The notes beneath the pieces are model-generated. The model did no database searches and had not been told where the DNA came from. It was given only the letters and a program-made list of their open reading frames with translations. This document shows, one piece after another, positions 1,910-16,769 of a DNA stretch of 64,000 bases; position 1 is the stretch's first letter; the number at the start of each line of letters is the position of its first letter. Source of the DNA: Verrucomicrobiota bacterium. GTDB lineage: Bacteria > Verrucomicrobiota > Verrucomicrobiia > Limisphaerales > UBA9464. The stretch lies in assembly GCA_043755815.1 (NCBI GenBank), contig JAYUSF010000220.1, forward strand, positions 14,361-78,360. The letters are read 5' to 3'. Position numbers and translations under genes: made by a program.

Positions 1910-1919
1910 GAAAGGTGGT

Positions 1920-2321: not shown

Positions 2322-2407
2322 GACGTGGCCACGGTAGGGTTCGCCCGCCGGAGCGTCAACGAACGCAGCCTGTGTTCTGAGGTGTCCAGAAAACCGGCGC
2401 CCTTCGT

Positions 2408-3025
2408 TCAGCAATTCGCGTATTTCCAGTTCCGTGGTTTACCTTCGGCCAGCCATTCGAGCGTGGTCGCGAGCCGTTGGGCCCGGGTTTCCGGCCGCTT
2501 CGCCTCGGTGACCCATTCCACGTATTCCTTGCGATGGCTGTAGCTGAAACCGTCGAAGGCCTTCGCCGCGGCCTTGTTCTTCTTCAGCGCGGCCTGCAAG
2601 TCATCCGGGACGGTCAGTGCCTTATTGGTCTTCCCAGTTGCGGCGGGCCGTGGGCGGCCGGGCGTATCAATGAGGTTCAGCTCGACCGCGTGCCTGAGGT
2701 AACGGATCAGCGTCCGGTCGTCGGGCAGGTCGTCCAAGCAGGTGATCTTGCCCATCAGTCCCATGGCCTCGTCGCTCGCGTGACCGTCGGCGGCGAGCAG
2801 TGTTTCCATGTCCTGATGCCAGAAGCCGAAGGTGCAGTGGGCTTTGAAGGCGGCCATGCTGCACAGGATTTTCCCGTTGGAGACGAAATTTGGGAAACTC
2901 CACTTCTTCGTCTCCTCGACGGTCGGACAGGCCCGGTGAACAAGTTCCCGGAGATGACGGAGGATCGGTCGGGCAAAGGGAGCCGCGGCGGCGATGTAGG
3001 CGTCCACCCAAGGATCGGTTTTCAT
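2408..3025 (-). CDS. YdeI/DUF1801-type protein (YdhG-like N-domain plus YdeI/OmpD-associated C-domain)
   Basis: The N-terminal half (VDAYIAAAAPFARPILRHLRELVH...WSFPNFVSNGKILCSMAAFKAHCTFGFW) and the C-terminal half (PDDLQAALKKNKAAAKAFDGFSYSHRKEYVEWVTEAKRPETRAQRL) match remembered signatures of DUF1801 and YdeI domains. Confidence 0.7.
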   Translation of the reverse strand: MKTDPWVDAYIAAAAPFARPILRHLRELVHRACPTVEETKKWSFPNFVSNGKILCSMAAFKAHCTFGFWHQDMETLLAADGHASDEAMGLMGKITCLDDLPDDRTLIRYLRHAVELNLIDTPGRPRPAATGKTNKALTVPDDLQAALKKNKAAAKAFDGFSYSHRKEYVEWVTEAKRPETRAQRLATTLEWLAEGKPRNWKYANC

Positions 3026-3070
3026 GGCGGTGGTGGAATTGAACCACCCACGGCCGATGACGCGAGGGGA

Positions 3071-4078
3071 TTATGCCGCCCGCGGTTGGAACTTCGAGGT
3101 GGCCGCCAGCTTCTCCCACAGGGCGCGTTCTTCCTCGGTGAGCTGGCCCGGGACCTTCACCCACAGCTTCACGTAAAGTTCGCCCCGTTCGGCGGTCTGG
3201 CCTTTGGGCAGACCGTGGCCGCGGACCCGGAGCTGCTGACCCGAATTGGTGCCGGCCGGGATGCGCACGCCGACGCTGCCGGTGAGCGTGGGCACGGTCA
3301 GCGTGGTTCCGAGGACGGCTTCCCACGGTGCCAGGTCCACCTCGGTCACGAGGTCGACCCCCTGCACGGTGAAGTCCGGATGGGGCGAAATCCGGACGCG
3401 TAGCAAGAGGTCGCCGGCCAGGCCGCCGCCCGCGCCGGCCTCTCCCTTGCCGGCCACGCGGATCATCTGGCCTTCCTGCACTCCGGCCGGAATCCGCACC
3501 TTGAAGCTGTGCGATTCGGTTTCGCCGCTGCGCGAGTTGACCCGGCGGAAGGAAACCTGACGCAGGGATCCGTTCATCACCTCGTCGAGGCTGACCGCGA
3601 GGTCGCCCTCGACGTCGGAACCGCGGGTCATGAACTGGGCTTCGGGGCTGCCGCCGGTCTCCTGAAACGGCCGGAAGCCGCCGCCCCCGCGGGCGCCGAA
3701 GAACTGCTCGAAGAAATCGCTGAAGCCGGTGCCGCCGAACTGGAATTCGGAATCGTCACCCGAAGGGCCGGCGCGCCGTGAACGTCGCCGGGCGCCACCG
3801 TCGTTCCCGTAGGGTTCCCAACCCGGTGGTGGCTGGAAGCCGGACCCCTGCTTCCAGTTGGCGCCGAGGGTGTCGTATTTCTTCCGGTTCTCCGGATCCC
3901 CAAGGACTTCGTAGGCCTCGTTGATCTCCTTGAACTTGTTTTCGGCTCCCTTCTTATCGGTCGCCACATCGGGGTGATATTTCCGGGCAAGCTGACGGTA
4001 AGCCTTCTTGAGTTCGTCGGCCGACGCCGTGCGTGGGACCCCGAGGGTGGCGTAGTAATCTTTGAAATCAGGTCCCAT
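3071..4078 (-). CDS. cbpA: DnaJ-class chaperone without zinc finger (CbpA-like curved-DNA-binding protein)
   Basis: The J-domain is canonical (DYYATLGVPRTASADELKKAYRQLARKYHPDV...FKEINEAYEVLGDPENRKKYD). A G/F-rich linker and two DnaJ C-terminal beta domains follow, and there is no CxxCxGxG zinc finger. The start is set to ATG 4078 (MGPDFKDYY). The 35-codon upstream extension in the track (to 4183) has no homology-like content. Confidence 0.85.
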   Translation of the reverse strand: MGPDFKDYYATLGVPRTASADELKKAYRQLARKYHPDVATDKKGAENKFKEINEAYEVLGDPENRKKYDTLGANWKQGSGFQPPPGWEPYGNDGGARRRSRRAGPSGDDSEFQFGGTGFSDFFEQFFGARGGGGFRPFQETGGSPEAQFMTRGSDVEGDLAVSLDEVMNGSLRQVSFRRVNSRSGETESHSFKVRIPAGVQEGQMIRVAGKGEAGAGGGLAGDLLLRVRISPHPDFTVQGVDLVTEVDLAPWEAVLGTTLTVPTLTGSVGVRIPAGTNSGQQLRVRGHGLPKGQTAERGELYVKLWVKVPGQLTEEERALWEKLAATSKFQPRAA

Positions 4079-4412
4079 GTGTGGCGGGCAGAGCAATAGC
4101 CGGGGAAACGGATTTCGTAAAACCACAGTTCGCGGGAACCGGGAGGAAGGCGTTCGGACTTGGCCGCCGTGCCCGATCCGCACGCCGGTTTGCCCCTGTC
4201 TCAGGCCGGCGCGCCACCGATTTCCCGCCTGTCACAACAGACCGCTACAAATTGTCCCGCGAAGGCACTAGGTGTTTACGCGACGAGGCAGCCCGTCTCG
4301 TCGAAATGGCGAAAAACCGGGGAATCCGGCGGAGTCAAAGTTCCGGCATACGGACTGCAAAGTGAGCGGCAGAGGACGCGAAGGTCGCGTCTACAAAATG
4401 AAAGGAAATGCC

Positions 4413-4880
4413 ATGACAACCAACGTGCCTGTTCGTCGTAACCAGACTTATCCGGTGAGCCCGTTCGCCACGCTGCTCAACTTGGGCCGGGACTTTGACC
4501 GGCTCTTGGAATCGCCCTTCGCCGCCCTCGGGCGGGAAGGTTTGCAGACGGCCTTTGCGCCGGCTCTCGAGGTCCGTGAGGATGCCGACAACATCACGGT
4601 GACGGCGGAACTGCCGGGCGTGGAAAAGAAAGACGTCAACGTCACTTTCCATGACGGTGTTCTGACCATCTCCGGTGAGCGCAAACAGGAGCGTGAGGTG
4701 AAGGAAGGCGAGTATCTCCGTTCCGAGCGGTATTACGGACGTTTCGAGCGTCAGGTGGGGGTTTCGACGCCCATTGAGGCCGACAAGATCAAAGCCGCCT
4801 GCAAAGACGGCGTGCTGACGGTGACGCTCCCGAAAAGTGCCTTGGCCAAACCCAAGACCATCGACATCGGTGTGAACTGA
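4413..4880 (+). CDS. Hsp20/alpha-crystallin family small heat-shock protein
   Basis: The alpha-crystallin core is present (PALEVREDADNITVTAELPGVEKKDVNVTFHDGVLTISGERK...RSERYYGRFERQV...ADKIKAACKDGVLTVTLPK). The start is set to ATG 4413, which follows aaggaa (4402-4407). The track ORF begins at 4272. Confidence 0.9.
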   Translation: MTTNVPVRRNQTYPVSPFATLLNLGRDFDRLLESPFAALGREGLQTAFAPALEVREDADNITVTAELPGVEKKDVNVTFHDGVLTISGERKQEREVKEGEYLRSERYYGRFERQVGVSTPIEADKIKAACKDGVLTVTLPKSALAKPKTIDIGVN

Positions 4881-4921
4881 GCGTCGCGGCTGAAGAAATC
4901 AGCGGACAGCCGCCGTTGTGG

Positions 4922-4956
4922 GCCCGTGGGGTAAGAGAACCCCACGGGCTTTTCAT
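4922..4956 (+). terminator. Rho-independent terminator after hsp20
   Basis: A perfect 9-bp stem (cccgtgggg 4922-4930 pairs with ccccacggg 4939-4947) has an 8-nt loop and is followed by cttttcatt. It lies 42 nt after the hsp20 stop. Confidence 0.65.
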
Positions 4957-4981
4957 TGCGGCTGGAAAGCCGCCACTCCGC

Positions 4982-6394
4982 TCAGCCGAGCACCGAATCC
5001 CGCATCACCCCATAGATCTGGGTGGATACCAGTTCCGGACCGGGCAGGTGCCCCGGTGCGATCACGATGGGCCAATCCTCGCGGCTGGCGGGGCGGCATC
5101 CGTGTGATCCCTTCACCAGCGACGCGTCGAGCGGAATGACGTCCATGAGCATGCGGAAGCCGAGCTTCTTCTGCAGCAGGCGCCAGGCGATCTTGAGCTT
5201 CACTGCGGGGATGGCGGGGTCGAGAAACAGTTCCACCGGATCGTAGCCGGGCTTCCGGTGGATATCCACGCAGCGCGCGAAGTCCGGCGCCCGGGCGTCA
5301 TCGAGCCAGTAGTAGTAGGAGAACCAGGCATTTTCCTGCGCCACCGCGACAAGGTCGCCTGCCCGCGGATGCGCGAGGCCGTTTTCAACCTTGGACGCAA
5401 AGTCCCAAACTTCCGCCACGCCGGGCGTCGCTTCCAACAGCGCCTGAACCTCGTCCTGCACCGACGGGTCGTTCACGTGGATGTGGGCAAACTGATGATC
5501 CGCGACCGCGAAGGCCTTCGAGTTGCCCGTGTCGAGCAGTTCGAACCCGAGTTCTTCCCGGACCGTGAGCCAGCCCCGTTTGCGGAATTCGCGGTTGAGG
5601 TGGATCGGCGTGTCCACCGGCGTGATGCCGTATTCGCTGAGCATGATCACCTGAACGCCGCGCCGGCTAAAGAAGTCCAGCAGGTCGCCCACAATGGCGT
5701 CGATCCGGCGGAGATCGTCCACAATCGCAGGATGCTTCGGACCCAGCCTCTGCAGGTTGTAGTCGAGGTGGGGCAGGTAAACGAGGTTGAGCGTGGGCCG
5801 GTGCTTTTCCTCCACCCACTTCGCTGAATTGGCGATCCAGCGGGTCGCGGCCTCGGGTTCGCCCTGCGGTGATTTCACCCCCGCCGCCGGCCCCCAAAAG
5901 GTGGCGAAGGGGAACTCCCCAAGGTCGCGCTTGATGGCCGGCCGCAGGTCGCTCGGCCAGGAATAGATGTCGAAGAACTTCCGCCCGTCCGCCGGATACA
6001 TCGGGCGCGGCGTGATCGACCAGTCGGCGCCGGAATACATGTTGAACCACCAGAACAGCTTTGCGCAGGTGAAGGCCGGGTTGGTCGCCTTGAGCTCGTC
6101 CCAGAGCTTCGGCGCGGTGACGACGTGGTTCGACTGCTTCCAGAAATGAACCTCGCTGAGTTCCCGGTTAAACCAGCCGTTGGCCACGATGCCGTGGATG
6201 CTCGGCCGGTGCCCGGTGAGGTAGTCCGACTGCGCAGTGCAAGTGACCGCCGGCAGGGCCGGATCAATGACGGCGTGCGGATTGCCCTGAAAATAGGCGC
6301 GCAGGCGCGGCGTGTGTTCGCCGATGAGCCCGCGCGTGAGGCCGACGACGTTGAGAACTGCGGTGCGTGTCACGGGCCGACATCGGAGAGCCAA
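4982..6394 (-). CDS. alkaline-phosphatase-superfamily nucleotide pyrophosphatase/phosphodiesterase (NPP)-like protein
   Basis: This 470-aa product has the N-terminus VLNVVGLTRGLIGEHTPRL, then TCTAQSDYLTGHRPSIHGIVANGW, then LVYLPHLDYNLQRLGP and a late HG(C)RP motif. These resemble type I phosphodiesterase/NPP family members. The assignment is from recall. Confidence 0.7.
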   Translation of the reverse strand: MALRCRPVTRTAVLNVVGLTRGLIGEHTPRLRAYFQGNPHAVIDPALPAVTCTAQSDYLTGHRPSIHGIVANGWFNRELSEVHFWKQSNHVVTAPKLWDELKATNPAFTCAKLFWWFNMYSGADWSITPRPMYPADGRKFFDIYSWPSDLRPAIKRDLGEFPFATFWGPAAGVKSPQGEPEAATRWIANSAKWVEEKHRPTLNLVYLPHLDYNLQRLGPKHPAIVDDLRRIDAIVGDLLDFFSRRGVQVIMLSEYGITPVDTPIHLNREFRKRGWLTVREELGFELLDTGNSKAFAVADHQFAHIHVNDPSVQDEVQALLEATPGVAEVWDFASKVENGLAHPRAGDLVAVAQENAWFSYYYWLDDARAPDFARCVDIHRKPGYDPVELFLDPAIPAVKLKIAWRLLQKKLGFRMLMDVIPLDASLVKGSHGCRPASREDWPIVIAPGHLPGPELVSTQIYGVMRDSVLG

Positions 6395-6498
6395 AACTGT
6401 TCCGGGTAAAGCGGCTGGTTTGGGAAAGCGCGGCCGTCGATGGAGACTGCCCCGTTCTTGGGCTTCTCTCCCGCGGGCCGGTTACCTAGCGTCGTCCC

Positions 6499-7845
6499 GT
6501 GAAACTTGCCCAGCTTCAGGCCGCGGTGAAGGCCGGCTCCATTGACACCGTCCTCGTCGCCATTCCCGATCCCTTCGGCCGGCTCGTCGGCAAGCGGTTC
6601 CGCGCCGACTACTTCCTCGATTCCGTGGTGAAGTCCGGCACGCACGGCTGCAACTACCTCCTCACCGTCAACATGGAGATGGACCCGCTCGACGGGTTCA
6701 AGGTTGCCAACTGGGACGCCGGCTTCGGCGATTTCGAGATGCGGCCCGACCTCGACACGATCCGCGTGCTGCCGTGGCAGCCGGGCGCCGCGTTGGTGCT
6801 CTGCGACTTCCTCAAGCACGACGGTTCGCTGGTGGCCGAGGCGCCGCGGTCGGTGCTGCGCCGCCAGTTGGACCGCGTCGCGAAGCTGGGCATGACGTGC
6901 TTCTGCGCGAGCGAGCTGGAGTTTTACCTCTTCAACCAGACCTTCCACTCCGCCTTCACCGACGGTTACCGGAACCTCCAGCCGTCGAGCGATTACCGCA
7001 TCGATTACCACCTCATGCAGCCCACGCGCGACGAGCCGCTGATGCGCGCGCTGCGCAACCAGCTCACTGCCGCCCGGGTGCCGGTCGAGAGCAGCAAGGG
7101 CGAGTGGAGCCGCGGCCAGCACGAGATCAACTTCACCTACGACCAGCCACTCCCGATGGCCGACATGCACGTCCTCTTCAAGCAGGGCGTTAAGGAGATC
7201 ACCGAGCAGCACGGCAAGGCCGTCACCTTCATGGCGAAGTATTCGCCGAGCGAGGCCGGCAACTCGTGCCACATCCACATGAGCCTGTGGAAGGGTGGCA
7301 AGAACGCCTTCTGGGATGCGAAGGCGCACGCCGGCTCGAAGCTGTTCCGGCAGTTTCTCGGCGGCCTGATGAAGTATTCGCCCGAGCTGTGCCTGTTCTA
7401 CGGACCGACGATCAACAGCTATAAACGCTACCAGCCCGGTTCCTGGGCGCCCACGCGCATGGCCTGGGCGACGGACAACCGCACGACCGGTTTCCGCGTC
7501 GTCGGTCACGGCAACGGCTACCGCCCCGAGAACCGCATGCCCGGCGCCGACGCGAATCCGTATCTCGCCTTTGCCGGCATGCTCGCGGCCGGCCTCGCGG
7601 GCATTGAAGAGAATCTCGACTGCGGCCCGGCCTACGAGGGCAACGCCTACCTCGATCCCCAGCTGACCCGCCTTCCGAGCTCCCTGCGCGACGCCACGGA
7701 CCTGTTCGAGCAATCCGCACTCGCGAAGTCCGCGTTCGGCGCGGAAGTGGTCGAGTTCTACGCCCACCATGCGCGGCTGGAACACCAGGCCTTCGGTGAC
7801 GCCGTGACCGACTGGGAGAAGCAGCGGTATTTCGAGCGGATTTGA
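6499..7845 (+). CDS. glutamine synthetase family protein (type I-like, gamma-glutamyl-amine ligase/PuuA-GlnA3-like)
   Basis: GS catalytic-domain motifs are present: SELEFYLF, EWSRGQHEINFTY, NSCHIHMSLW, TTGFRVVG..., ENRMPGADANPYLAFAGMLAAGLAGIEE. It is 448 aa, divergent from the NPP-like gene. Confidence 0.85.
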   Translation: MKLAQLQAAVKAGSIDTVLVAIPDPFGRLVGKRFRADYFLDSVVKSGTHGCNYLLTVNMEMDPLDGFKVANWDAGFGDFEMRPDLDTIRVLPWQPGAALVLCDFLKHDGSLVAEAPRSVLRRQLDRVAKLGMTCFCASELEFYLFNQTFHSAFTDGYRNLQPSSDYRIDYHLMQPTRDEPLMRALRNQLTAARVPVESSKGEWSRGQHEINFTYDQPLPMADMHVLFKQGVKEITEQHGKAVTFMAKYSPSEAGNSCHIHMSLWKGGKNAFWDAKAHAGSKLFRQFLGGLMKYSPELCLFYGPTINSYKRYQPGSWAPTRMAWATDNRTTGFRVVGHGNGYRPENRMPGADANPYLAFAGMLAAGLAGIEENLDCGPAYEGNAYLDPQLTRLPSSLRDATDLFEQSALAKSAFGAEVVEFYAHHARLEHQAFGDAVTDWEKQRYFERI

Positions 7846-7846
7846 A
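7798..7846. repeat. direct repeat copy 1 (49 bp, GS-gene 3' end including stop codon)
   Basis: gacgccgtgaccgactgggagaagcagcggtatttcgagcggatttgaa is identical to 12019-12067. Confidence 0.95.
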
Positions 7847-7848
7847 AC

Positions 7849-8015
7849 GTAGGGCAAGCTGCCAGCCTGCCCGGCAGAATCTTCGATAGCTCTGCAAGCG
7901 TCTCCGGCAGCGGAGCGCCGAGCATCGCTCGGCTCGGATTGGCCGCTGGTCGTCCTGGCCGAGCAATGCTCGGCGCTCCGGCAAACACGAGGGACAGGCT
8001 GGCAGCCTGTCCTAC
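7849..8015. repeat. nested palindromic (hairpin-forming) intergenic repeat element, REP/MITE-like
   Basis: The outer arms are gtagggcaagctgccagcctgccc (7849-7872) and gggacaggctggcagcctgtcctac (7991-8015), about 21/24 complementary. The inner arms are cggagcgccgagcatcgctcggc (7911-7933) and gccgagcaatgctcggcgctccg (7958-7980), complementary with one mismatch. Each inner arm is itself a small hairpin. Confidence 0.8.
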
Positions 8016-8206
8016 TCGGTGGCCCGACTGCACGGCGGTGTAGCTGGCGTCGAGGGCGGGACGTGCGTCCAGCAGGTCGTATCATTGAGCCGGATGTTCA
8101 AATCGGGACCGAAGCCGAGCTTTGCCGGGCGATCCGGTAGCGGCTCAACTTCAGCAAGACGGCCCTTGCTCGGCATGATGGTCGGGGGTTCCAACCCGTT
8201 GGTCTG

Positions 8207-9859
8207 CTATTTCGGTGGCGTAAACAGGCGAAAGAATCGGCGAACCGGGCTGTCCGGTTCGTCGGAACCTTCAATGTGAGGGCTGGTGGCATCGAAGAGG
8301 TCTTTGTAAGGGCCTTCAGGCTTCTCAGCGCGTTGCAGCACCACCTTCGGCTTATTCCAGAAAATGAGAGTGGGATGCCTGTCATCGAAAACGAAGGCTC
8401 CGAGACTGCCTTGTGACTCCGGCCCCTGCAGGAGGAAAGCATGGTCCTCGACCTCGCCATCCGGGGCCGACGCGGTGTTCAGGGCCTCCTTCGCGGTGCT
8501 GAAGCGGAAGCGCACATACAAGTGACCTCCGATCGGGACCTTCACCCCCGAAAGGCTGAAGCTGAACTGGTTCACGCCGGCATAGACGCCCGTGGCGCCC
8601 TCCCGTTGCGTGACGAAATCCGTGGTCAACATCTCGCTCGAAGCGCTGAAGCTCCCGTCACCGTTCTTATCCGCCATGACGGTCAGGAAACCCGCCGCCG
8701 AGGCATACACCGCGCCGCTGAGGACCCAGGTGGACGGATCCCGCGGATCCACCTGCGCGAGCCGCATCACCACGCCATCTTCATCGGGTCCGTCCTTATC
8801 GCGGTTGTCGTCGACGGCGTAAGGGGAGGGCTGGCCATCCCCGTCCGCGTCCACCGTCAGCCCCAGATGGATGCCCGGCTTGATGACGTGGGCCGGCCCG
8901 CCGCTGGCGGCCAGGGTCCGATAGGTGTCAGGGGCGTCGCCGTAGTCCAACGCGCCTTCCGCGGGTGGCGCCGCATGGACCGGCACGGGCGGGGAGAGCT
9001 CCGACGTGTTGCCGCTCGGGTCGGTGTATGTCAGCCGCACGGTGGTGCCGGGAGGAGGATTGTCCGGGGCAGGAAGATTGATCTCAAACTCACCGGTGGG
9101 GGTTCCCGTCACCTGAAAGACGCCCGTCGGCGTAAGCCGGACTAAGCCGCTAGCGAGCCGTTCTTGGGTGTAGATCTCGACCACTCCGACTTTGTCGGTC
9201 GCGAGACGGATCTGGCCGGTCACCTCGGTGCCCGTTGCCGTTGGCGTCGCCACGACGGTATCGGGGAAGGGGGTCCCACCGGGGCCGTTGGGATCGGTCG
9301 AATTCGGGCCGTCGCCGCCCACATCTATCGGGTTGGGACCCGTGAAGGTGTTGTTCTGGAGAGTGACGATTGGCTGAGCCTCTCCGGGTTCGTCGCGCAC
9401 GACGATGTGCGCGGTCTGGTCGTAAGGGGAATTGCCTGTGAACGTGTTGCCCTTGACGAGGGTCACCGGAGTGCTGCCTTGGGATGTATTTCCGCCGCCT
9501 TCGATCAGAATGAAGGGTTTCGTCATCGGCAGGTCGTTTTCGCCGTCACTGCTGAACTCATCAAAAATGCTATCGGAAATCTCCACGCCGGGGCTGCCCG
9601 TCAGCGTCATTGCGGGAGCGGTGGTGTTGAACTGCGAGTCGGTCACCACAAAGCCGGCCGAGTTTTGGGCGTCGATGGCCTGGCCGTTGCCGACTACAAC
9701 CACCCCCCGGACCTCGTTGTCACGACCGTCTATATCGGCGATGGCGGCTACCGCTCTCCGGAGGTCGCTCTGAAACTCGCTATCCGCATCTAGGGATAAA
9801 AGCGCCCCGAGGACGAGGCTTTGGAAAGATGTTGCCCCCCCCTGAAACCGGAGAGCGTA
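8207..9859 (-). CDS. C-terminal fragment of a beta-helix adhesin-like protein, with a GEVED domain and an FFRL-type terminal module
   Basis: The frame is open from 9859, and the track lists 8207..9703 from a GTG. It contains beta-helix-like turns (NTFTGNSPY, LQNNTFTGPNP) and an Ig-like stretch. Next come ALDYGDAPDTYRT...LGLTVDADGDG and SAPDGEVEDHAF, which is the GEVED signature. The tail is VVLQRAEKPEGPY...RRFFRLFTPPK. It is probably continuous with 9790..11015 through a poly-G slip. Confidence 0.6.
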   Translation of the reverse strand, partial: YALRFQGGATSFQSLVLGALLSLDADSEFQSDLRRAVAAIADIDGRDNEVRGVVVVGNGQAIDAQNSAGFVVTDSQFNTTAPAMTLTGSPGVEISDSIFDEFSSDGENDLPMTKPFILIEGGGNTSQGSTPVTLVKGNTFTGNSPYDQTAHIVVRDEPGEAQPIVTLQNNTFTGPNPIDVGGDGPNSTDPNGPGGTPFPDTVVATPTATGTEVTGQIRLATDKVGVVEIYTQERLASGLVRLTPTGVFQVTGTPTGEFEINLPAPDNPPPGTTVRLTYTDPSGNTSELSPPVPVHAAPPAEGALDYGDAPDTYRTLAASGGPAHVIKPGIHLGLTVDADGDGQPSPYAVDDNRDKDGPDEDGVVMRLAQVDPRDPSTWVLSGAVYASAAGFLTVMADKNGDGSFSASSEMLTTDFVTQREGATGVYAGVNQFSFSLSGVKVPIGGHLYVRFRFSTAKEALNTASAPDGEVEDHAFLLQGPESQGSLGAFVFDDRHPTLIFWNKPKVVLQRAEKPEGPYKDLFDATSPHIEGSDEPDSPVRRFFRLFTPPK

Positions 9860-11015
9860 TCAGATGCGCCTTTCATGTGGATGCGGTGGTCACTGGGAGC
9901 CGGTTCGCCGCTCGGTTCCGCTTGTTGCTTGGCAATCAGTGGCCGCCGCAGGCTGTTTTCAGAGGGTCTCCTTGCGGCGAGCGCCTCTCCAACTGGCAGC
10001 GGATGTCCCACGGCATCCACTTCCCAACCCAGCAGACATTGCGTGATTTGATGCCCGCCACCCCCGCGGAGTTCGATGTCATCGCCGGGATTGTTGAGGA
10101 AAACCAGTCCCTGGACTAGGCAGTCCTGCGCCTCGATTCGCAGGCCATCGCTGCCCGCCGGCAGGTTCTTCCCGTCGAGGCGGATCAGCAGCGTGGGCTT
10201 GAACTCGTTCGTGGACGTGTTGGCCGCACTGCCCGGCTGGCTCAGTCCGTCAAGGATCACGGCCCGCTTGATGACCGGCAGTTCGGTCGACGCCGCGATG
10301 GTATGGACGCCCGCTCCCGGAATATTGAACTCGATCCGCCGCGAAATCGCCGCTCCGGCGGCGTTCGCGTCCAGGATGGCCTGCCGCAACGAGCCCGGCC
10401 CGCTGTCGGCCGTGCTAGTGACCACGGCGACCAGCGGCGGACCCACCGGGAAAGTGACGGCGCGGCAGGCGCAGAACTCCGAGGTGTTGCCGGCGGCATC
10501 CGTGGCCGTGGCCGTGAAGAAGTTGCCGGGGGCGGCGACGGTCAACGTCAGCTCAAAGGTCGCGTTGCCAGAGGCATCCGTGGTCACGGAGGCGGTGCCG
10601 AGATACGTCTGACCTTCACCGTTGCCGGAAGGATCACATTCGTCGTTGCCGTAGAAATCGAGCGTGAAAGTTTGCGCGGCCACGCTGTTCAGGCTGCCCT
10701 GGAGCACGAGACCGGCAGCCGAGTTCGACGCGAGCGTCAGCACCGGAAAGTTCTGCCCGAGATTGGCCCCGGCATCGGCGTCGCCCGGGTCATTGGCGTT
10801 GATGCCGCTGCTGAAGCCCAGATCAATTCCGAGCGACAACGCGAACTGGTTGACCGGCCCGGGCGGCGACACGTTGCCAAAGATCGAGTTGCCCCGGATG
10901 GAAACCTGCCGGCCGGTGACATTGAACACGCCGTCGCCCCGGTTGTGCGCGATGACGTTGGCGGCCCCGGGCTCAATCCCGCCCACCGTGACGCCGTAGG
11001 CATTCGAGACGAATG
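9790..11015 (-). CDS. middle fragment of the same beta-helix adhesin-like protein
   Basis: The track ORF is 9790..11181. The sequence looks meaningful only from about 11015 (FVSNAYGVTVGGIEPGAANVIAHNRGDGVFNV...). It has parallel beta-helix style repeats and then a second copy of the module VTSTADSGPGSLRQAILDANAAGA...IEFNIPGAGVHTIAASTELPVI...ILDGLSQPGSAANT. Confidence 0.55.
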
Positions 11016-11860
11016 CCGCCGCCCAGATTACCCACGTCCGCGCTGCCCAGGAAGTCGGTGCCGATGCGGTTGCCCAGAATGCGAATCGCCAGGTTCTGCC
11101 CGGAGGCGCCGATGATGCGGAGGGTGGCGTTGGTCTGATTGCCGATGAACTGGTTGCCGGCTCCCGGCTCGGTCCCACCAATGGTCCCGCGCAGAGAATT
11201 GGTCAGCACCAAGGCCCCGCTGGCGCTGCCTTCGACCGGCGCGCCAGGCGTGCGGCGGATGCCGAAGAAATTTCCCTGAATGAGGAAGTCCGTTGCCTCG
11301 GTGGCCGAGATGCCGATGCCGCTGACGATCACGTTGCGCTGCCCGGCAGCCGTCCCACCGACGCGCGCGTTCACCCCTCGCCGGGTGGTGATGCCGACGC
11401 CGTCACCGCGAAACTGGCAGCCCTCGATTACGGTGCCATTCCCGGCCATATTCACGCCCGCCAAGCCGCCGACGAAGTCCACGCCGCGGATCACATTGGT
11501 TGCCCCGACGCAGACCAGGAAAAAGGGCGCGGTGCTGCCGGCCTCACCGATCTGGATGCGCCACTGCGCGTCCATGCCCGTCGCAAGCGTGTTGGGCGCG
11601 GAACCGGGCTGCGTGAAGCCGTCCAGCGTGACCTGGCCGTTCAGGGACGGCAGTTCCGACAGGGGGACGATCTGGTGAGGGCCGTCGCCCGGGATGTTGA
11701 ACTGGATCACGTCCGCCCCCGCCGGCTGGCTGTCTTGCAGCGCCTGCCGCAGCGAGCCCGGGCCGGTGTCGTTGACGTTGGTGACGGTGAAGGTGGCGGC
11801 GTGGCTGAACAGGCTGAACCCGAGCAGACCAAGGGTCGCGACGTCGGATAAGCGTTTCAT
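10973..11860 (-). CDS. N-terminal fragment of the beta-helix adhesin-like protein (signal peptide plus a CSLREA-like N-terminal module)
   Basis: It begins MKRLSDVATLGLLGFSLFSHAATF (Sec signal), then TVTNVNDTGPGSLRQALQDS...IQFNIPGDGPHQIVPLSELPSL...LDGFTQPGSAPNT, then repetitive G/N/I-rich beta-helix turns. It ends at a stop shortly after the frame break near 11013. Confidence 0.6.
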   Translation of the reverse strand: MKRLSDVATLGLLGFSLFSHAATFTVTNVNDTGPGSLRQALQDSQPAGADVIQFNIPGDGPHQIVPLSELPSLNGQVTLDGFTQPGSAPNTLATGMDAQWRIQIGEAGSTAPFFLVCVGATNVIRGVDFVGGLAGVNMAGNGTVIEGCQFRGDGVGITTRRGVNARVGGTAAGQRNVIVSGIGISATEATDFLIQGNFFGIRRTPGAPVEGSASGALVLTNSLRGTIGGTEPGAGNQFIGNQTNATLRIIGASGQNLAIRILGNRIGTDFLGSADVGNLGGGIRLECLRRHGGRD

Positions 11861-12018
11861 GGCGAATCAAAGACTCGGCCAACGTCGGAACGGATTGGGG
11901 CCAACGGCCGACGCAACAAAGTGCTTTAGGCTGTGAGCAGGCGCTTCCCGCCGGTCCAAAGCGAGCCCAAAGGCGTCCGTAACAATCGTTAGGGGGCGCA
12001 GCTTTTCACCGCGGCAGC

Positions 12019-12067
12019 GACGCCGTGACCGACTGGGAGAAGCAGCGGTATTTCGAGCGGATTTGAA
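12019..12067. repeat. direct repeat copy 2 (49 bp, non-coding duplicate of the GS-gene 3' end)
   Basis: It is identical to 7798-7846 and lies 64 nt upstream of the glgB start. Confidence 0.95.
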
Positions 12068-12131
12068 GTGCGAGGGGGCGGGCCGTGCTTTTGCCATTCC
12101 GCTTTCCCCGGGTCGGGCGTTTACTCCCGCC

Positions 12132-14327
12132 ATGCTTCTCACCGACGCCGAGCTGCACTCGCTCACCGGGCTCGTTCATCAATCGCCCCACACGCTCCTC
12201 GGACTGCATCCGCTGGGCGATGGTTCCGGGCTGGTCGCGCGGGCGCAAATTCCCGACGCCGCCAAGGTTGAACTGGTGCCGGTGCATGACGTTTCGAAGC
12301 CGAAGATCGCGCTGAAGCGGATCGGGGAGACGGCGGTGTTTGAAGGCACGACGAAGAAGGCCAGCGAGGTCTACGCCTATGACCTCGTCATCACCTGGGG
12401 CGACGGCACCAAGACCCAGGGACGCGACCCGTTCTCCTTCTGGCCGACCGTCGGTGAAACCGACCTGCACCTCTTCGGCGAAGGCAATCACCGCAAGTTG
12501 GGCGACGTTCTTGGCGCGCAGTTGAAGACGCTCGACGGCGTTCCGGGCACCGGCTTCGCCGTCTGGGCACCCAACGCGCGGCGCGTTTCCGTCATCGGCA
12601 GCTTCAACGGTTGGGACGGCCGCCGCCATCCCATGCGCCTGCTCGGTTCGTCCGGCGTGTGGGAGATCTTCGTGCCCGGCGTCACGGAAGGCGCGCTCTA
12701 CAAGTTCGAGATCCTCGACGCGCAGGGGAATCTGAAGGTGAACACCGACCCGTTTGGCGCGCTCTTCGAGCAGCCGCCCAAGCAGGCCGCCATCGTCTGG
12801 AACACCAAGAAGTTCCAGTGGAGCGACGCGGCGTGGCTGGAGCAGCGCACCAAGACCAACTCGCTTAAGGCGCCGATGAGCATCTACGAGGTCCATCTTG
12901 GCTCCTGGCGCCGGAAGTCCGGCTGGGAAGCCCTCGGCTACCGCGAACTCGCCGGACCGCTGGTGGACTACGTGCGGAAGCTCGGCTTCACTCATGTCGA
13001 ATTCCTGCCGCTGGCCGAGCACGCCTACTACCCAAGCTGGGGCTATCAGGTCACCGGGTTCTACGCGCCCACCAGCCGTTACGGCACCCCCGAGGATTTC
13101 CAGTTCCTGGTCAACGCCCTGCATGAGGCCGGCATCGGCGTGCTCGTGGACTGGGTGCCAGCGCACTTCCCGCGTGACACCTGGGCCCTCGCGCAGTTCG
13201 ACGGCACCGCGCTCTTCGAGCACGCCGATCCGCGTCAGGGCGCGCATCAGGACTGGGGCACGCTCATCTTCAACTACGGCCGCAACGAGGTCAGAAACTT
13301 CCTCGCCGCCAACGCGCTGCACTGGTGCGAACGCTTCCACATCGACGGCCTGCGCGTGGATGCCGTCGCCTCGATGCTCTACCTCGACTACTCGCGCAAG
13401 GAGGGCGAATGGATTCCCAACCAGTTCGGTGGCCGCGAGAATTTGGAGGCCATCGAGTTCCTCAAGCACTTCAACCACCTCATCGGCACTGAACATCCCG
13501 GCGTCGTCACGATCGCCGAGGAAAGCACGGCCTTCCCGATGGTCTCGCGCCCGCCTTGGCTCGGCGGGCTCGGCTTCAACCTCAAGTGGAACATGGGCTG
13601 GATGCATGACACGCTCGGCTACTTCGGCCGCGATCCGATCTACCGCCGGTTCCACCAGAACGACCTCACGTTCGCGATGCTCTATCAGGGCCACGAGAAT
13701 TTTGTGCTGCCGCTCTCGCACGACGAGGTCGTCCACGGCAAGGGCTCGCTCCGCCAGCGCATGCCCGGCGACGACTGGCAGGCCGCCGCGAACCTCCGCG
13801 CGCTACTGGGCTACCAGTGGCTCTTCCCCGGCAAGAAGCTCCTCTTCATGGGCCAGGAATTTGGCCAGTCCGCCGAATGGAATTCCGCCACGGAACTCGA
13901 CTGGTGGCTCCTCGAAGCCGGCCCCTTCCACGCCGGTATCCAGAAGTGGATGGGCGACCTCAACGCCTTCTACCAGGGCGAACCTGCCCTCTGGCGCGGC
14001 GACTATGAGCAGGATGGATTCTGGTGGGTGGACTGCGGTGATCACGCCAACAGCGTGCTGACCTTCATCCGCCACGACCGCGAGTCCGGCTCCCACGTCC
14101 TCGCCGTGCTGAATCTCACGCCCAATCTCCTGAGCGGCTACCGCATTGGCCTGCCCAAGCCCGGCTGCTGGCGCGAAGTGCTGAACAGCGATGCCGGCAT
14201 CTACGCCGGCAGCAACCAGGGTAATCCGCTGGGCGTGACCGCCGAGGATTACGCGGTGCAGAACCAGCGTTACTCCGCGATGTTCACGCTGCCGCCGCTG
14301 AGCGTGAGCGTGTTCAAGGCGGAGTGA
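12132..14327 (+). CDS. glgB: 1,4-alpha-glucan (glycogen) branching enzyme
   Basis: GH13 branching-enzyme motifs are present: FAVWAPNARRVSVIGSFNGWDG, VLVDWVPAHFPRD, HIDGLRVDAVASMLYLDY, VVTIAEESTAFP, FVLPLSHDEVVHGKGSL, and the C-terminal VLNLTPN...YRIGLP. The start is set to ATG 12132 (MLLTDAELH...). The track ORF begins at a TTG at 12063 inside the 49-bp repeat. Confidence 0.95.
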   Translation: MLLTDAELHSLTGLVHQSPHTLLGLHPLGDGSGLVARAQIPDAAKVELVPVHDVSKPKIALKRIGETAVFEGTTKKASEVYAYDLVITWGDGTKTQGRDPFSFWPTVGETDLHLFGEGNHRKLGDVLGAQLKTLDGVPGTGFAVWAPNARRVSVIGSFNGWDGRRHPMRLLGSSGVWEIFVPGVTEGALYKFEILDAQGNLKVNTDPFGALFEQPPKQAAIVWNTKKFQWSDAAWLEQRTKTNSLKAPMSIYEVHLGSWRRKSGWEALGYRELAGPLVDYVRKLGFTHVEFLPLAEHAYYPSWGYQVTGFYAPTSRYGTPEDFQFLVNALHEAGIGVLVDWVPAHFPRDTWALAQFDGTALFEHADPRQGAHQDWGTLIFNYGRNEVRNFLAANALHWCERFHIDGLRVDAVASMLYLDYSRKEGEWIPNQFGGRENLEAIEFLKHFNHLIGTEHPGVVTIAEESTAFPMVSRPPWLGGLGFNLKWNMGWMHDTLGYFGRDPIYRRFHQNDLTFAMLYQGHENFVLPLSHDEVVHGKGSLRQRMPGDDWQAAANLRALLGYQWLFPGKKLLFMGQEFGQSAEWNSATELDWWLLEAGPFHAGIQKWMGDLNAFYQGEPALWRGDYEQDGFWWVDCGDHANSVLTFIRHDRESGSHVLAVLNLTPNLLSGYRIGLPKPGCWREVLNSDAGIYAGSNQGNPLGVTAEDYAVQNQRYSAMFTLPPLSVSVFKAE

Positions 14328-14330
14328 GCC
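14205..14330. repeat. glgB 3'-end segment duplicated at 16209-16334 (copy 1, functional)
   Basis: gccggcagcaaccagggtaatccgctgggcgtgaccgccgagga...gtgttcaaggcggagtgag aligns to 16209-16334 with a few substitutions. Copy 2 also has one extra A. Confidence 0.9.
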
Positions 14331-14370
14331 GGCAGTTTAGATCCACCAAGCACGGAGATCGCTCGCCACC

Positions 14371-14640
14371 ATGGATGCCCCGGAACTGTTATTGGCCTTT
14401 TTTGCAGTCATGGGCCTGCTTCTGGTGATCTTCGCCTCATCGGTTGCGAGGCTGCTTCGGTCGTTGTCGGCGATCGCGTTCAAACAGCCCAGCCAGCAAT
14501 GGCCTTTGGCGAAGGCGATGGTGGGTCTTGTGTTCGAGCCCCGGCGACTTCCCTTTGTCGTGAGGGCGCTCGGAGTTGCCTATGTGGCGACGGGGATGTT
14601 GCTTTTTTTTCTTATAAAGCTGCTACCTCGTCTTGGTTAA
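14371..14640 (+). CDS. hypothetical small membrane protein (89 aa)
   Basis: It has an ATG start and two clear hydrophobic helices (LLLAFFAVMGLLLVIFASSV, ALGVAYVATGMLLFFLIKLL). It lies in the accessory patch after glgB. No family was recognised. Confidence 0.4.
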   Translation: MDAPELLLAFFAVMGLLLVIFASSVARLLRSLSAIAFKQPSQQWPLAKAMVGLVFEPRRLPFVVRALGVAYVATGMLLFFLIKLLPRLG

Positions 14641-14728
14641 GGGCGCGCACGGGATCCAGGTCCGCTCTCTGGCATTGCCGCGCAAACGCCCCCTTGACCG
14701 GTTGCCCAACTCGCAACAGAAGTGAGTT

Positions 14729-14953
14729 ATGCTGAATCTGGAAAATCTCCGGTCCCGGGTGCGCGGTGCCGGCTTCACTCCCTTCACTTTGCACCTGACC
14801 GATGGACGGGAGCTTCAGGTGCCGCATCCTGAGTTCATCGCAGTTAGCCGCAATATCGTTGTGGTGGTGACCGAGGACGGAGTGAGTTTCAGCATTGATC
14901 CTCTCCACATCGTCGCAATCTCCGACAGGTCGGCGGCGCCGACGGCTGGGTAA
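14729..14953 (+). CDS. hypothetical protein (74 aa)
   Basis: The ATG-initiated ORF has globular-looking composition (FTPFTLHLTDGRELQVPHPEFIAVSRNIVVVVTEDG). No recognisable family. Confidence 0.35.
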   Translation: MLNLENLRSRVRGAGFTPFTLHLTDGRELQVPHPEFIAVSRNIVVVVTEDGVSFSIDPLHIVAISDRSAAPTAG

Positions 14954-15038
14954 GATCGTCGGCACATGTTTCTGCGTTGTAGTGAAGGCGGTCCGTTTGC
15001 CGGATTGAACCGACGGTTGAATACGACATACTTCCGCC

Positions 15039-15284
15039 ATGCGACTTGCTGAACTCTTGCCGGCTCTTCGCGAGCTGCCGCGACCGGAGAAGCTGCTCGC
15101 GGTGGAATTCCTGAACAACGAACTCGCCCGAGACGCTGAGCCTGGAGCGACTACAGTCCAGAGTGCCAAACCGGCTGCTTCCGGTGCGATCCATGCCGAA
15201 GTGCTGGCCCTTTCCGGCCTCGTCCCGGCCGGCATTGAAGCCCGGGAAAGCCACATGGAGCACCTGCTGGCCAAGCACCGGTGA
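15039..15284 (+). CDS. putative antitoxin (addiction-module component with LPxxE(K/R) N-terminal motif)
   Basis: The N-terminus LPALRELPRPEKLLAVEFLNNELA resembles the LP..ER..La..L motif of small addiction-module antitoxins. Its stop overlaps (GTGA at 15281-15284) the start of a PIN-like remnant. Confidence 0.4.
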   Translation: MRLAELLPALRELPRPEKLLAVEFLNNELARDAEPGATTVQSAKPAASGAIHAEVLALSGLVPAGIEARESHMEHLLAKHR

Positions 15285-15463
15285 AAGTCCTGCTGGATCT
15301 CAACGTCCTGCTCGACGTGGTGCAGCAACGGGTGCTGGGAAGTGAAATGTTCCGCGGGCAGCCGTTCAGAACATCTCTTCGCCAAAGGGAAGCTGGCTCG
15401 GAAGCAGGAACGTCTTCACCAGTTCACCCTCGCCGCAGACGGTCATTCCCGGAAACCGCTTGA
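15281..15463 (+). pseudogene. truncated PIN-domain (VapC-like) toxin remnant
   Basis: The first 17 codons (V)KVLLDLNVLLDVVQQR match the conserved PIN N-terminus containing the first catalytic Asp. After about codon 20 the sequence loses any PIN-like character, and the region is occupied by an opposite-strand two-gene cassette. Confidence 0.3.
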
Positions 15464-15611
15464 ACCAAGGCCCCGGCGGCACGGTTGGCTGAGTGTCCAG
15501 CCACGAGGCCAACTGCCCGAGCGCACTGGCCGGAATGCGGCGCTGCTCAATCCGATCCAGCAGGTGTCGCAACACCGCGGGTGGCAGGTTCTGACGACGA
15601 ACCGTGGGCAT
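15366..15611 (-). CDS. hypothetical protein (81 aa), downstream partner of a putative antitoxin (candidate toxin)
   Basis: Its ATG shares one base with the upstream gene's TGA (TGATG at 15609-15613), a typical TA-pair coupling. No known toxin family was recognised. Confidence 0.4.
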   Translation of the reverse strand: MPTVRRQNLPPAVLRHLLDRIEQRRIPASALGQLASWLDTQPTVPPGPWFKRFPGMTVCGEGELVKTFLLPSQLPFGEEMF

Positions 15612-15823
15612 CAGCGGCGGCCGTAGAATCCGGTCTCGATGGAGTCTCGCAGGACTTGGGCTTCCGCAACGTCGTTGGTCGTTGCCAAGCGTTCTCCCAG
15701 AGTGGTCAAGGCGGCGGCGCTCAGCATCCCCTCAGCTTCCAAACTGCGGGCGAAGCGGATGACTTCAGCCCGCTCCACGGCTGGCAGGGCGACAATCTCG
15801 CCGATGATTTGCGTGGCAGTCAT
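15611..15823 (-). CDS. putative antitoxin (addiction-module component, LPxxER motif)
   Basis: IIGEIVALPAVERAEVIRFARSLE matches the LP..ER..(hydrophobic)..L motif of small addiction-module antitoxins. It is 70 aa and coupled to the next ORF. Confidence 0.4.
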   Translation of the reverse strand: MTATQIIGEIVALPAVERAEVIRFARSLEAEGMLSAAALTTLGERLATTNDVAEAQVLRDSIETGFYGRR

Positions 15824-15883
15824 GACCGCAGGCTACTGAAACTGGGCGACAGGGTCAAACCGGGTGGACTCAGAAGGAATGCA

Positions 15884-16212
15884 GGCGCATCTGGGCACCG
15901 TCGGCTGTGCTCCGCTTGCTGGTGGGGCGAGACTCTGTCGAGCCCCACCAGCAAGCGGAGCGAGGCGAACGGAGTGAGCATCTCTTCCCCTCGCCCCCGA
16001 GACGCTCGCCGCGCTCGCACCGGCTCCGCCGGCAAACAGGGCTCGACGGAGTCTCGCCCCACCGGGCACGCGCGGTGTTTGACGCGCGAATGCTTGGTGA
16101 ATGAATGCAACTGCGCAGCGTCGTCGGCTTGAAACAGCTTCAATGAAATTCCCTGCCTCTGGCCGTCGCCTCTTCGCCATCTTGTCCGCCTTCAGTTTCG
16201 CCTGGGCCGCCG
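15884..16212. repeat. copy 1 of a ~330-bp repeat (upstream region plus first codons of the beta-helix gene at 17377); contains a nested palindromic element at 15913-16063
   Basis: It aligns along its length with 17117-17446 at an estimated 85-90% identity by eye. It includes a perfect 15-bp stem (15913-15927 with 15943-15957) and a long-range arm at 16042-16063. It ends at the chimeric junction with the glgB-tail copy. Confidence 0.85.
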
Positions 16213-16765: not shown

Positions 16766-16769
16766 GGCT

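Follow-up and report, generated by a model that had tools for sequence, protein, structure and literature searches.

One of the closest likenesses to the locus described here is the C-terminal displacement of Rhs proteins (Jackson et al., 2009; PMC2935791). Comparable arrays of orphans are known from CDI and T6SS effector-immunity loci, and the displacement seen in the T6SS loci has been ascribed to homology-facilitated illegitimate recombination (HFIR) (Kirchberger et al., 2017; PMC5361080). Campbell-type insertion-duplication and HFIR have been described in natural transformation (Prudhomme, 2002; Meier and Wackernagel, 2003; both as cited in PMC5361080). As in Rhs, CDI and T6SS displacement, the locus studied here has orphan fragments of variable length of a conserved gene lying downstream of it (53–99 nt, in four lineages), new DNA placed directly after the conserved part, an old 3′ end that would have been moved downstream and not deleted, and no dedicated recombinase. 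The proposed mechanism is also the same, namely homologous recombination with a circular intermediate, or HFIR. There are differences. Unlike in Rhs, the anchor lies at the far 3′ end of a metabolic gene of the glutamine synthetase (GS) family and not in a polymorphic-toxin core, the orphans do not exceed 99 nt, and the cargo is neighbouring chromosomal context, toxin-antitoxin (TA) pairs or defence-like genes instead of toxin tips with immunity genes. Unlike in all three systems, the GS protein, a Gln-synt_C enzyme, keeps its full coding sequence and is not re-tipped.

The window, that is, the whole 64,000-nt stretch of DNA analysed, contains the following features around the GS-family gene and the glgB gene downstream of it.

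6499–7845, plus strand: GS-family gene, intact, 448 aa (Pfam Gln-synt_C, E = 5e-99).
7798–7846, plus strand: repeat copy 1, the final 48 nt of GS including its TGA (7798–7845) plus 1 nt.
7849–8015, no strand: nested palindromic (REP-like) element between convergent genes (inverted repeats I2 and I6).
8012–8194, minus strand: relic of a Type ISP/IIG restriction-enzyme C-terminal gene, 60 codons (protein and DNA alignment to L163).
8207–11860, minus strand: adhesin-like secreted-protein gene in three frames (8207–9703, 9790–11181, 10973–11860), a pseudogene (ORFs, weak Pfam matches).
11861–12014, no strand: DNA upstream of the adhesin-like gene, joined at its right end to the orphan GS tail by a new, presumably illegitimate joint.
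12015–12067, plus strand: orphan GS tail, repeat copy 2 (12019–12067 perfect; 12015–12018 is CAGC).
12132–14327, plus strand: glgB, 1,4-alpha-glucan branching enzyme (CBM_48, GlgB_N, Alpha-amylase).
14204–14328, plus strand: glgB tail, copy 1 in another duplication of a gene end.
14329–15883, no strand: accessory block B, small ORFs without family matches.
15884–16212, plus strand: copy of a REP-like element, upstream region and first 70 nt (signal peptide) of the gene starting at 17377.
16208–16333, plus strand: orphan glgB tail, 94% identical, one indel.
16463–17051, minus strand: HigA (HTH_3)/HigB toxin-antitoxin pair, block D.
17117–17446, plus strand: resident REP-like element and 5′ end of a secreted-protein gene (ATG at 17377).

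The GS-family protein scores under the NCBIfam equivalog cut-offs for GlnA, type III GS and gamma-glutamylputrescine synthetase. Compared with L001–L004, the gene shows 93.5% nucleotide and 97% amino acid identity, and the homology is confined to positions 6447–7845. The earlier note had described a perfect 49-bp direct repeat of the 3′ end of this gene bracketing an accessory segment, and both points are borne out: 7798–7846 and 12019–12067 are identical at 49 of 49 nt and enclose 4172 bp. In 100 dinucleotide-preserving shuffled controls, no match was found at up to 3 mismatches, and chance expects none. The extent given for the repeat holds for the perfect stretch but not for copy 2, which reaches 4 nt further left, giving an orphan of 53 nt. 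These four bases, CAGC, include the Ser codon AGC found in sister lineages, whereas the window’s GS has GGT there. Over 12015–12066, the orphan is identical to an L163-type GS tail at 51 of 52 positions versus 50 of 52 for the window’s own GS, and sister-lineage GS tails are 94–98% identical to the orphan over 52 nt. The perfect identity of the copies suggests a recent event, as the earlier note had read it, and older orphan-tail events in relatives have copies that are only 86–95% identical.

The left 350 bp of the insert, comprising the palindromic spacer and the relic, is the normal GS-downstream context of L004 and L162–L180. In these sister lineages, a Type ISP/IIG gene lies directly 3′ of GS. 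Window positions 8003–8190 are homologous (78% nt, 63–70% aa) to the gene relic found after GS in L004 and in 19 JGI contigs. No second GS tail is seen in any of these within up to ~8 kb. The window’s relic carries an internal deletion of ~160 nt and has 63% amino acid identity to a 166-aa ORF of L163, which matches PF18135 Type_ISP_C and the PADLOC type IIG REase-MTase model. At the position equivalent to 7849–8015, L004 and L163 have another palindromic spacer. By alignment, the left end of the insert and the CAGC of the orphan are shown, at the level of sequence, to be of sister-lineage origin (L004/L163). The insert had been said to carry only the palindrome and the three-frame gene; both are there, but the word “only” was wrong, since the 60-codon relic is present as well. 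The palindrome folds at −114 kcal/mol (z = −8.4). An integron cassette array was considered and rejected, no integrase having been found in the scanned ORFs and the palindrome occurring once in the window and, among the other loci, only in L161, which is the Logan copy of the window’s own segment.

The adhesin-like gene has weak matches to GEVED and Big_6, the former also present in homologues, and its frameshifts recur in an independent Logan contig. A search for a close intact homologue found none, the best match being 36% identical over 35% of the query. The joint between the insert and the orphan tail is located at 12014/12015, and no terminal inverted repeats link the insert ends.

The Logan assembly of run SRR23617202 contains a 4232-bp contig that matches window positions 7817–12048 exactly. 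It consists of the 4172-bp insert and, at either end, 30 nt of a repeat copy, the length predicted when a 49-bp repeat bounds a contig built at k = 31. The insert and both insert-to-repeat junctions are present in the reads of this independent assembly. We consider it very unlikely that the arrangement is an assembly artefact or reflects a mixed population, in which the real molecules would be GS, one repeat and glgB, together with a separate 4221-bp circle or another strain’s locus, misthreaded into one path. The window does come from a metagenome-type assembly (source contig of 84.6 kb), the relatives are all MAGs, and the Logan contig, ending 30 nt into each copy, fits both graph resolutions equally. 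However, ordinary reads are longer than 49 bp, as are the large k-mers that metagenome assemblers use, so that the path through the repeat was probably spanned. The two junctions seen in the reads also speak for the deposited arrangement, and independent MAGs of other studies (L001, L019 and L077) show this architecture too, with copies that have diverged.

These three MAGs represent three other species with their own orphan GS tails, 53 to ~99 nt long, and with toxin-antitoxin or defence-like cargo between GS and the orphan. L001 corresponds to L002 with two additions, a low-GC insert of 806 bp (51% vs 68% GC) and an orphan GS tail of 84–88 nt. The orphan of L001 and the DNA downstream of it match L002, and the GS-attached tail of L001 ends in a foreign ATT TAG. 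L002 is the empty site of L001, and the L001 orphan is clearly the resident tail. L019 has a ParD-like antitoxin and a PIN toxin, and L077 an AF2212-like antitoxin and a MazF-like relic. The left edge of the orphan lies at 53 nt in the window, 53–54 nt in L019, 88 nt in L001 and ~95–99 nt in L077, with the right edge always at the stop codon. All five duplications, the GS and glgB cases together, end at a stop codon, +0–2 nt. Orphan tails were found at 3 of 80 GS ends vs ~1 in 2100 other gene ends, an enrichment of roughly 80-fold (Fisher p ~2e-4). Several related Verrucomicrobiota have been struck independently at this gene end.

In most relatives, GS is the last gene of an alcohol-DH/aldehyde-DH/GS operon, and the contexts downstream of it are unrelated and differ between almost all lineages. 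The content found there includes an RM relic, TA pairs and an imuA/imuB-like cassette. Oliveira, Touchon and Rocha reportedly described, in 2017, integration hot spots flanked by core genes, with turnover via recombination in the flanks. As at such hot spots, the conserved GS flanks a region that holds different content in almost every lineage; unlike in hot-spot replacement, recombination here left an orphan-tail scar, exposing the mechanism of an additive event.

We lean towards reading the repeat as a scar left by homology-anchored insertion-duplication (of the Campbell type or by HFIR) and not as the ends of a self-mobile island. The “scar of a duplication-mediated insertion”, which the earlier note had mentioned as an alternative, is close to this reading. 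We suggest that DNA of a related Verrucomicrobiota lineage entered the cell by some presumed route, and that the incoming fragment would start ~53 nt before the stop codon of the donor GS and continue into the donor’s GS-downstream DNA, i.e., the palindromic spacer, the Type ISP/IIG relic and the adhesin-like pseudogene. A crossover within the near-identical GS tail, made by the host's homologous recombination, would follow, while the far end of the fragment would be closed by the single illegitimate joint at 12014/12015. This may occur by circularisation, with a putative circular intermediate followed by a Campbell-type single crossover, or, equally possible, by HFIR of a linear strand. GS would thereby stay intact, and the resident tail would be shifted 4.2 kb downstream, to a position before glgB, as a non-coding 53-nt orphan. 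Which side was resident is judged by analogy with L001/L002, given that no genome with GS next to glgB was found. That the duplication stops exactly with the stop codon would follow from the lack of any sequence common to donor and recipient past GS; that the GS-downstream content differs in almost all lineages explains the flush right edge.

In support of insertion-duplication, the duplicated segment is homologous in the incoming and resident DNA and ends where the homology ends, and the incoming DNA matches a relative’s homologous locus in its relic and its AGC-type tail (L004/L163 lineage). The parallel events in relatives, one of them a filled/empty pair, the microhomology joint on the glgB side, and the search for recombinases, which found none in the window or beside GS in relatives, likewise count in its favour, as do the published precedents. 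Several points weigh against it. No GS locus or glgB locus with the two genes directly adjacent was found, a stretch of 49 bp gives RecA-type recombination little to work on, the GS enrichment is not obviously predicted by random homology-anchored events, and the common left edge of the window and L019, at −53/−54, hints at a fixed site. The locus resembles Campbell-type and HFIR events in its single homologous anchor, in its single, presumably illegitimate joint, and in the duplication of the anchor on either side of the foreign DNA. The locus differs from the laboratory events, which have anchors of hundreds of bp as far as they are reported in PMC5361080, in being natural and in having an identical stretch of 49 bp.

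The glgB gene, which starts 64 nt past repeat copy 2, has undergone a gene-end duplication as well, with the order A-B-C/A′-D-C′. The segment 15884–16212 is 84–90% identical to 17117–17446 and is fused to the orphan glgB tail (the C/A′ joint) via the 5-nt microhomology CGCCG (16208–16212), a likeness to HFIR. This order is a circular-intermediate or tandem-junction topology, which a site-specific recombinase acting at the glgB tail could not make, and the CGCCG joint is a signature of illegitimate recombination. Block B may have a TA-like arrangement, judging from gene size and order.

The earlier note had preferred to read the two copies as attL and attR of a site-specific integration. Under such a scheme, the GS tail would be attB, and integrase-less cassettes bearing attP would be inserted by a recombinase encoded elsewhere. 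In its favour, one gene end was struck repeatedly, in four lineages and with unrelated cargo, and more often than other gene ends are; the left edge is common to the window and L019; the cargo, with its TA pairs and a gene family that in L182 lies beside an SMC-like ATPase, SIR2 and HicA, is typical of mobile islets; and the foreign type at the left of the orphan and at the right of the GS-attached tail fits attR and attL. The locus also shares with integrase-borne islands in the 3′ ends of tRNA, tmRNA or protein genes a repeat that is the target’s 3′ end, a reconstituted gene, an empty site in a relative (L002 vs L001) and accessory or defence-related cargo. Unlike those islands, it has no integrase, excisionase or conserved element ends, and the repeat length varies between events. 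Pfam scans found no tyrosine or serine recombinase, integrase or transposase in the ORFs of the insert or in the main window ORFs (two giant ORFs excepted), in line with what the earlier note had said of the insert, nor was a recombinase found in the inserts of the relatives or beside GS in 80 plus 19 related loci (neighbour clusters by eye; precomputed Pfam). Moreover, the nucleotide conservation of the final 16 GS codons is not unusual (rank 124 of 433), the left end of the window’s insert is ordinary chromosome in sister lineages without any attR, and the neighbouring glgB structure requires illegitimate recombination anyway. Site-specific integration is, in our view, improbable. It is a possible, though tentative, proposal that the GS tail serves Limisphaerales/Pedosphaera-like Verrucomicrobiota as a dedicated docking site. 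Small cassettes lacking a recombinase (TA pairs, defence-like genes, stray chromosomal segments) would bear a 50–100-nt GS-tail handle and would either excise as circles by tail-tail recombination and insert again at the GS tail in other lineages or be moved by an unlinked site-specific recombinase. If true, this would account for the ~80-fold GS enrichment and the common −53 edge.

It is also doubtful that the orphan arose with no crossover in the repeat, having come attached to the glgB-side block, with a translocation or import breakpoint 53 nt from the end of another GS. Given the similarity of sister tails noted above, 49 identical bases are not improbable, and glgB has moved with respect to distant relatives, its conserved neighbours (homologues of window ~1062–1574 and 1920–2270) lying 10 kb upstream here. 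The adjacency of GS and glgB is found nowhere else: the empty site for which the earlier note had proposed a search, with GS directly before glgB, did not turn up in 80 plus 19 GS loci or in 80 glgB loci. However, an origin with no crossover needs an unobserved GS-glgB arrangement in a donor or second locus, just as insertion-duplication does, and it leaves unexplained both the L001/L002 pair, whose orphan is clearly the resident tail, and the same architecture in four lineages. Target-site duplication by a transposable element would place direct repeats around an insert, as seen here, but is effectively refuted. A duplication of 49–53 nt far exceeds any target-site duplication known to us, and there are no terminal inverted repeats and no transposase. 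Fill-in duplication can produce neither the extra 4 nt of the orphan, which differ from copy 1 in a lineage-specific way, nor the foreign TAG stop of the GS-attached tail of L001.

Most bacterial accessory-gene hot spots are without mobile-element genes, and the entry of DNA into them is usually inferred and not seen. With its orphan tail, its microhomology joint and the filled/empty pair in relatives, the present case preserves the scars of additive gene gain, most likely through ordinary recombination, in uncultivated Verrucomicrobiota. It also shows how TA and defence genes accumulate downstream of a conserved gene at the end of an operon. Should the GS tail prove to be a preferred handle, the logic of Rhs-type displacement would extend from toxin genes to housekeeping genes.

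The tail of the intact glutamine-synthetase-family gene (GS) occurs twice in the window. Bases 7798–7846, which are the final 48 nt of the GS coding sequence plus 1 base, recur at 12019–12067 with 49 of 49 nt identical, so the perfect 49-bp repeat described in an earlier note on this DNA is confirmed. These are the only two copies in the window at ≤3 mismatches, and none appeared in 100 dinucleotide-preserving shuffles. The features around the repeat, and around a second scar discussed below, are as follows.

Features of the window bearing on the two scars
6499–7845: GS-family gene, 448 aa (Gln-synt_C, E = 5e-99)
7849–8015: nested palindrome, fold of −114 kcal/mol (z = −8.4)
8012–8194, minus strand: 60-codon ORF
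8207–11860, minus strand: adhesin-like gene split over three frames; GEVED and Big_6 signals are weak
154 nt: upstream region of the adhesin-like gene, rightmost of the four features between the copies
12132–14327: glgB, starting 64 nt past the second copy
17117–17446: resident REP-like element, upstream region and 5′ end of a secreted-protein gene (gene start at 17377)

A protein database records the insert's 498-aa ORF in an 84.6-kb NCBI contig and in a Logan contig of run SRR23617202. The Logan contig, 4232 bp in length, matches window positions 7817–12048 exactly, covering the 4172-bp insert plus 30 nt from each repeat copy. This is the size predicted for a contig that ends in a 49-bp repeat at k = 31, which we take to be the value in use for the Logan assembly. 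An independent assembly thus recovers both junctions between insert and repeat, together with the inner gene's frameshifts. A second sample also contains this Logan contig.

The interval was previously described as carrying only the palindrome and the three-frame gene; both are present, but the 60-codon ORF lies there as well. The insert is not atypical in GC content. A protein database search gave no close homologue of the adhesin-like gene apart from the window's own contig, and this passenger gene is already a pseudogene. As had been noted from the sequence, no integrase or transposase is found inside: a Pfam scan of the insert's ORFs, and of the main ORFs of the window except two giant ones, identified none. 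The giant ORFs are adjacent, at 36060–48383 (4107 aa) and 48380–59359 (3659 aa), and contain Asp-rich GAC/GGC repeat families (56672–58556) and a tandem 72-nt repeat (58706–58993). Around them, a 57-nt repeat (35137–35193 and 61327–61383, 81% identity, 26 kb apart), whose first copy is directly upstream of a PEP-CTERM protein gene (35221–36090), may represent a regulatory or leader element common to both sites. No tRNA, tmRNA or Rfam family lies within the window, so an RNA target is rejected. Further REP-like palindromes, at 15898–16063, 17131–17294 and 26084–26265, share no sequence with that at 7849–8015. The arms are 41 nt long in one, which is duplicated together with the block downstream of glgB, and 44 nt long with 91% complementarity in another.

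The source organism is a Limisphaerales/Pedosphaera-like verrucomicrobiote. Among the 439 GS loci of GTDB genomes, the surroundings of GS were surveyed in the best 80. Most relatives have GS at the end of an operon that opens with two genes resembling alcohol dehydrogenase and aldehyde dehydrogenase, and the content downstream of GS differs in almost every lineage. The adjacent clusters, judged by eye, include homoserine kinase, an MFS transporter, a TPR protein, sugar isomerases and similar genes, and no recombinase was seen among them. The closest GS genes among these loci, L001–L004, have 97% aa and 93.5% nt identity to that of the window, and the homology extends from 52 nt before the start codon up to the stop codon only. 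This module (6447–7845) is 93–97% identical in L001–L004, in 19 JGI contigs (L162–L180) and in L172–L174. Its flanks are unrelated among these lineages on both sides, and the clade lacks the two dehydrogenase genes that precede GS elsewhere. The GS gene itself may have been relocated or transferred. Mismatch profiles against L001–L004 reveal no breakpoint inside GS, and GS mosaicism is rejected.

An empty site with GS directly followed by glgB, which the earlier note proposed to look for among relatives, was not found. The best 80 of 439 GS loci lack glgB, the adhesin-like gene and the upstream phosphodiesterase in the neighbourhood of GS, none of 19 further GS contexts reached via protein clusters has glgB, and none of 80 JGI-metagenome glgB loci (best identity to the window, 74%) has GS. 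Searches for exact matches to the window's GS and glgB proteins found no record.

Three of the 80 relatives (best 80 of 439) carry an orphan GS tail of their own downstream of the intact gene.

Orphan GS tails in relatives
L001: 84–88 nt, 95% identical, with an internal TAG, behind an 806-bp insert
L019: 53–54 nt, behind a ParD-like antitoxin and a PIN toxin
L077: about 95–99 nt, behind an AF2212-like antitoxin and a broken MazF-like toxin

The right edge is the stop codon (+0–2 nt) in all cases. The left edge is variable, with −53/−54 common to the window and L019. The window scar has 0 differences in 49 nt versus 5–14% divergence in the other four scars, and the recent event proposed earlier from the perfect identity is, on this comparison, probable.

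The locus L002 is the empty site of L001: L001 is matched as far as the GS stop by L002 positions 1–1669, and from the orphan onward by L002 positions 1586–7964. The L001 orphan and the sequence downstream are of the L002 type (ATC TGA), whereas the GS-attached tail ends in ATT TAG; because it differs from L002, the attached tail of L001 is the one that arrived with the insert. This insert has 51% GC within a 68% GC locus and codes for one 246-aa protein (11389–12129), from a family of about 250 aa with 14 clusters and no Pfam domain. The cargo was considered as a GS-specific cassette and rejected, given this 14-member family and the contexts of its homologues in L181 and L182, which have no flanking gene-tail repeats. 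The L181 homologue (5001–5756) is a low-GC singleton. In L182 (5001–5768), its neighbours are a 544-aa uncharacterised protein on one side and an 895-aa SMC_N/AAA ATPase on the other; SIR2_2 and HicA are also close by. The family may be an uncharacterised defence component. A further block of ~6.5 kb between GS and a restriction-gene relic (L001 12359–18493, L002 1890–7964) is absent from L004. Its first gene is RecA-like (imuA-like), followed, as judged by eye, by Y-family polymerase and dnaE2 lookalikes. The block makes the region downstream of GS a multi-event hot spot.

The origin of the insert's left end can be traced. When the insert was compared with all loci by tblastx, high-GC noise was dominant and the only usable match was to L004, at 8003–8179. 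Segment 8003–8190 is homologous to the sequence downstream of GS in L004 and in the 19 JGI contigs, which carry GS proteins from the same 90% cluster. There, the homologue is the 3′ end of a gene convergent to GS, whose product matches Type_ISP_C and the PADLOC type IIG REase-MTase model. Remnants of this gene have 523, 166 or 35+104 codons depending on the contig; the window's version has 60, with an internal deletion of ~160 nt. No second GS tail was found in those contigs within up to about 8 kb. The insert's left end is thus normal chromosomal sequence from downstream of GS in a sister lineage and not a mobile-element terminus. The second copy of the tail runs 4 nt further to the left (CAGC), where sister lineages have TTC AGC GAC versus TTC GGT GAC in the window's own GS. 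Over 52 nt, the orphan matches the sister-lineage tail at 51 positions and the window's own GS at 50.

A second scar adjoins the first. The last ~125 nt of glgB (14204–14328) recur 2 kb downstream, at 16208–16333, with 94% identity. Segment 15884–16212 is a copy of the REP-like element, the upstream region and the first 70 nt of the secreted-protein gene, and it is fused directly to the orphan glgB tail at a 5-nt microhomology, CGCCG. The order is therefore glgB tail, block B (small ORFs), 5′ part of the next gene, then glgB tail, block D (HigA/HigB), 5′ part of the next gene. This topology is that of integration through a circular intermediate (Campbell) or of a joint formed by tandem duplication between two alleles of the spot downstream of glgB; it cannot arise by site-specific recombination at the glgB tail. 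HigA (HTH_3) and HigB form a toxin–antitoxin pair on the minus strand (16463–17051). The five small ORFs upstream of the pair (14371–15823; 60–89 aa) have no Pfam, NCBIfam or PADLOC match, and the start of the one at 15281, by eye, resembles a truncated PIN toxin.

We propose that the donor of the GS scar was a circularised sister-lineage fragment carrying, in order, the AGC-type tail, the palindromic spacer, the restriction–modification relic and the adhesin-like gene, and that the recipient was a resident chromosome with GS(GGT)–glgB. A single crossover inside the 49 identical bases would give exactly the observed product. A linear strand could equally have acted by homology-facilitated illegitimate recombination (HFIR); with the illegitimate end inside the anchor, the same product would form, with the roles of donor and resident swapped. 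Mechanistically, the scar works like a Campbell-type insertion-duplication or HFIR.

The earlier note read the repeat as the attL/attR footprint of site-specific integration. We consider this improbable, and it is kept as a rival because of the common −53/−54 edge and the strong enrichment of orphan tails at GS. Such tails occur at 3 of 80 GS ends and at no other gene end in the same 1.2 Mb. A further 1.05 Mb of unrelated loci contained one other gene-3′-end duplication (L156, 648–808 and 1581–1741, a direct duplication of 161 nt, 98.8% identical). Fisher's test gives p of about 2e-4, with gene numbers in the denominators taken as roughly one per kb. Against an integrase stand the lack of a recombinase in the insert, the tested window ORFs and the GS-adjacent genes, the left edges that are unequal between events, the chromosomal context of the insert end in lineages without the duplication, and the neighbouring glgB joint, which needs illegitimate recombination. 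Nor is conservation of the GS tail special: when 81 genes were aligned by codon, the final 16 codons ranked 124th of 433 in nucleotide identity and 79th of 433 in synonymous identity, and an att-like constraint is rejected on these ranks. Target duplication by a transposon is excluded by the repeat length, by the absence of inverted repeats and of a transposase, and by repeat edges that differ in a lineage-specific way.

The orphan tail may instead have travelled with the glgB block, whose position is rearranged relative to distant relatives. In three such loci (L084, L086 and L091), glgB is followed by homologues of window ~1062–1574 and 1920–2270 (minus-strand frames; 51% and 83% aa identity), which in the window lie about 10 kb upstream of glgB with relative orientation kept. 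This circularly permuted order indicates rearrangement around glgB. However, such travel needs the same GS–glgB adjacency, which was not observed, and leaves L001/L002 unexplained. Mis-threading by the assembler of an empty site and a 4221-bp circle, with which the k = 31 contig alone is compatible, is unlikely, since the repeat is only 49 bp long and diverged versions of the same architecture occur in independent MAGs.

Homology-anchored insertion-duplication is thus the reading we prefer, and the repeat is a real recombination scar, well supported and of a type already known. It does not pass the tests that define integrase islands, integrons or transposons. The architecture is similar to the displacement arrays of Rhs, CDI and T6SS, but the scar does not belong to these toxin families because it is anchored in a metabolic enzyme that keeps its sequence. 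The moderately interesting point that remains is the high frequency of events at the GS tail. A circular-intermediate model has been proposed for Rhs tips (PMC2935791). The enrichment at GS could likewise come from cassettes flanked by GS tails, which would excise by homologous recombination and spread with the tail as a “handle”.
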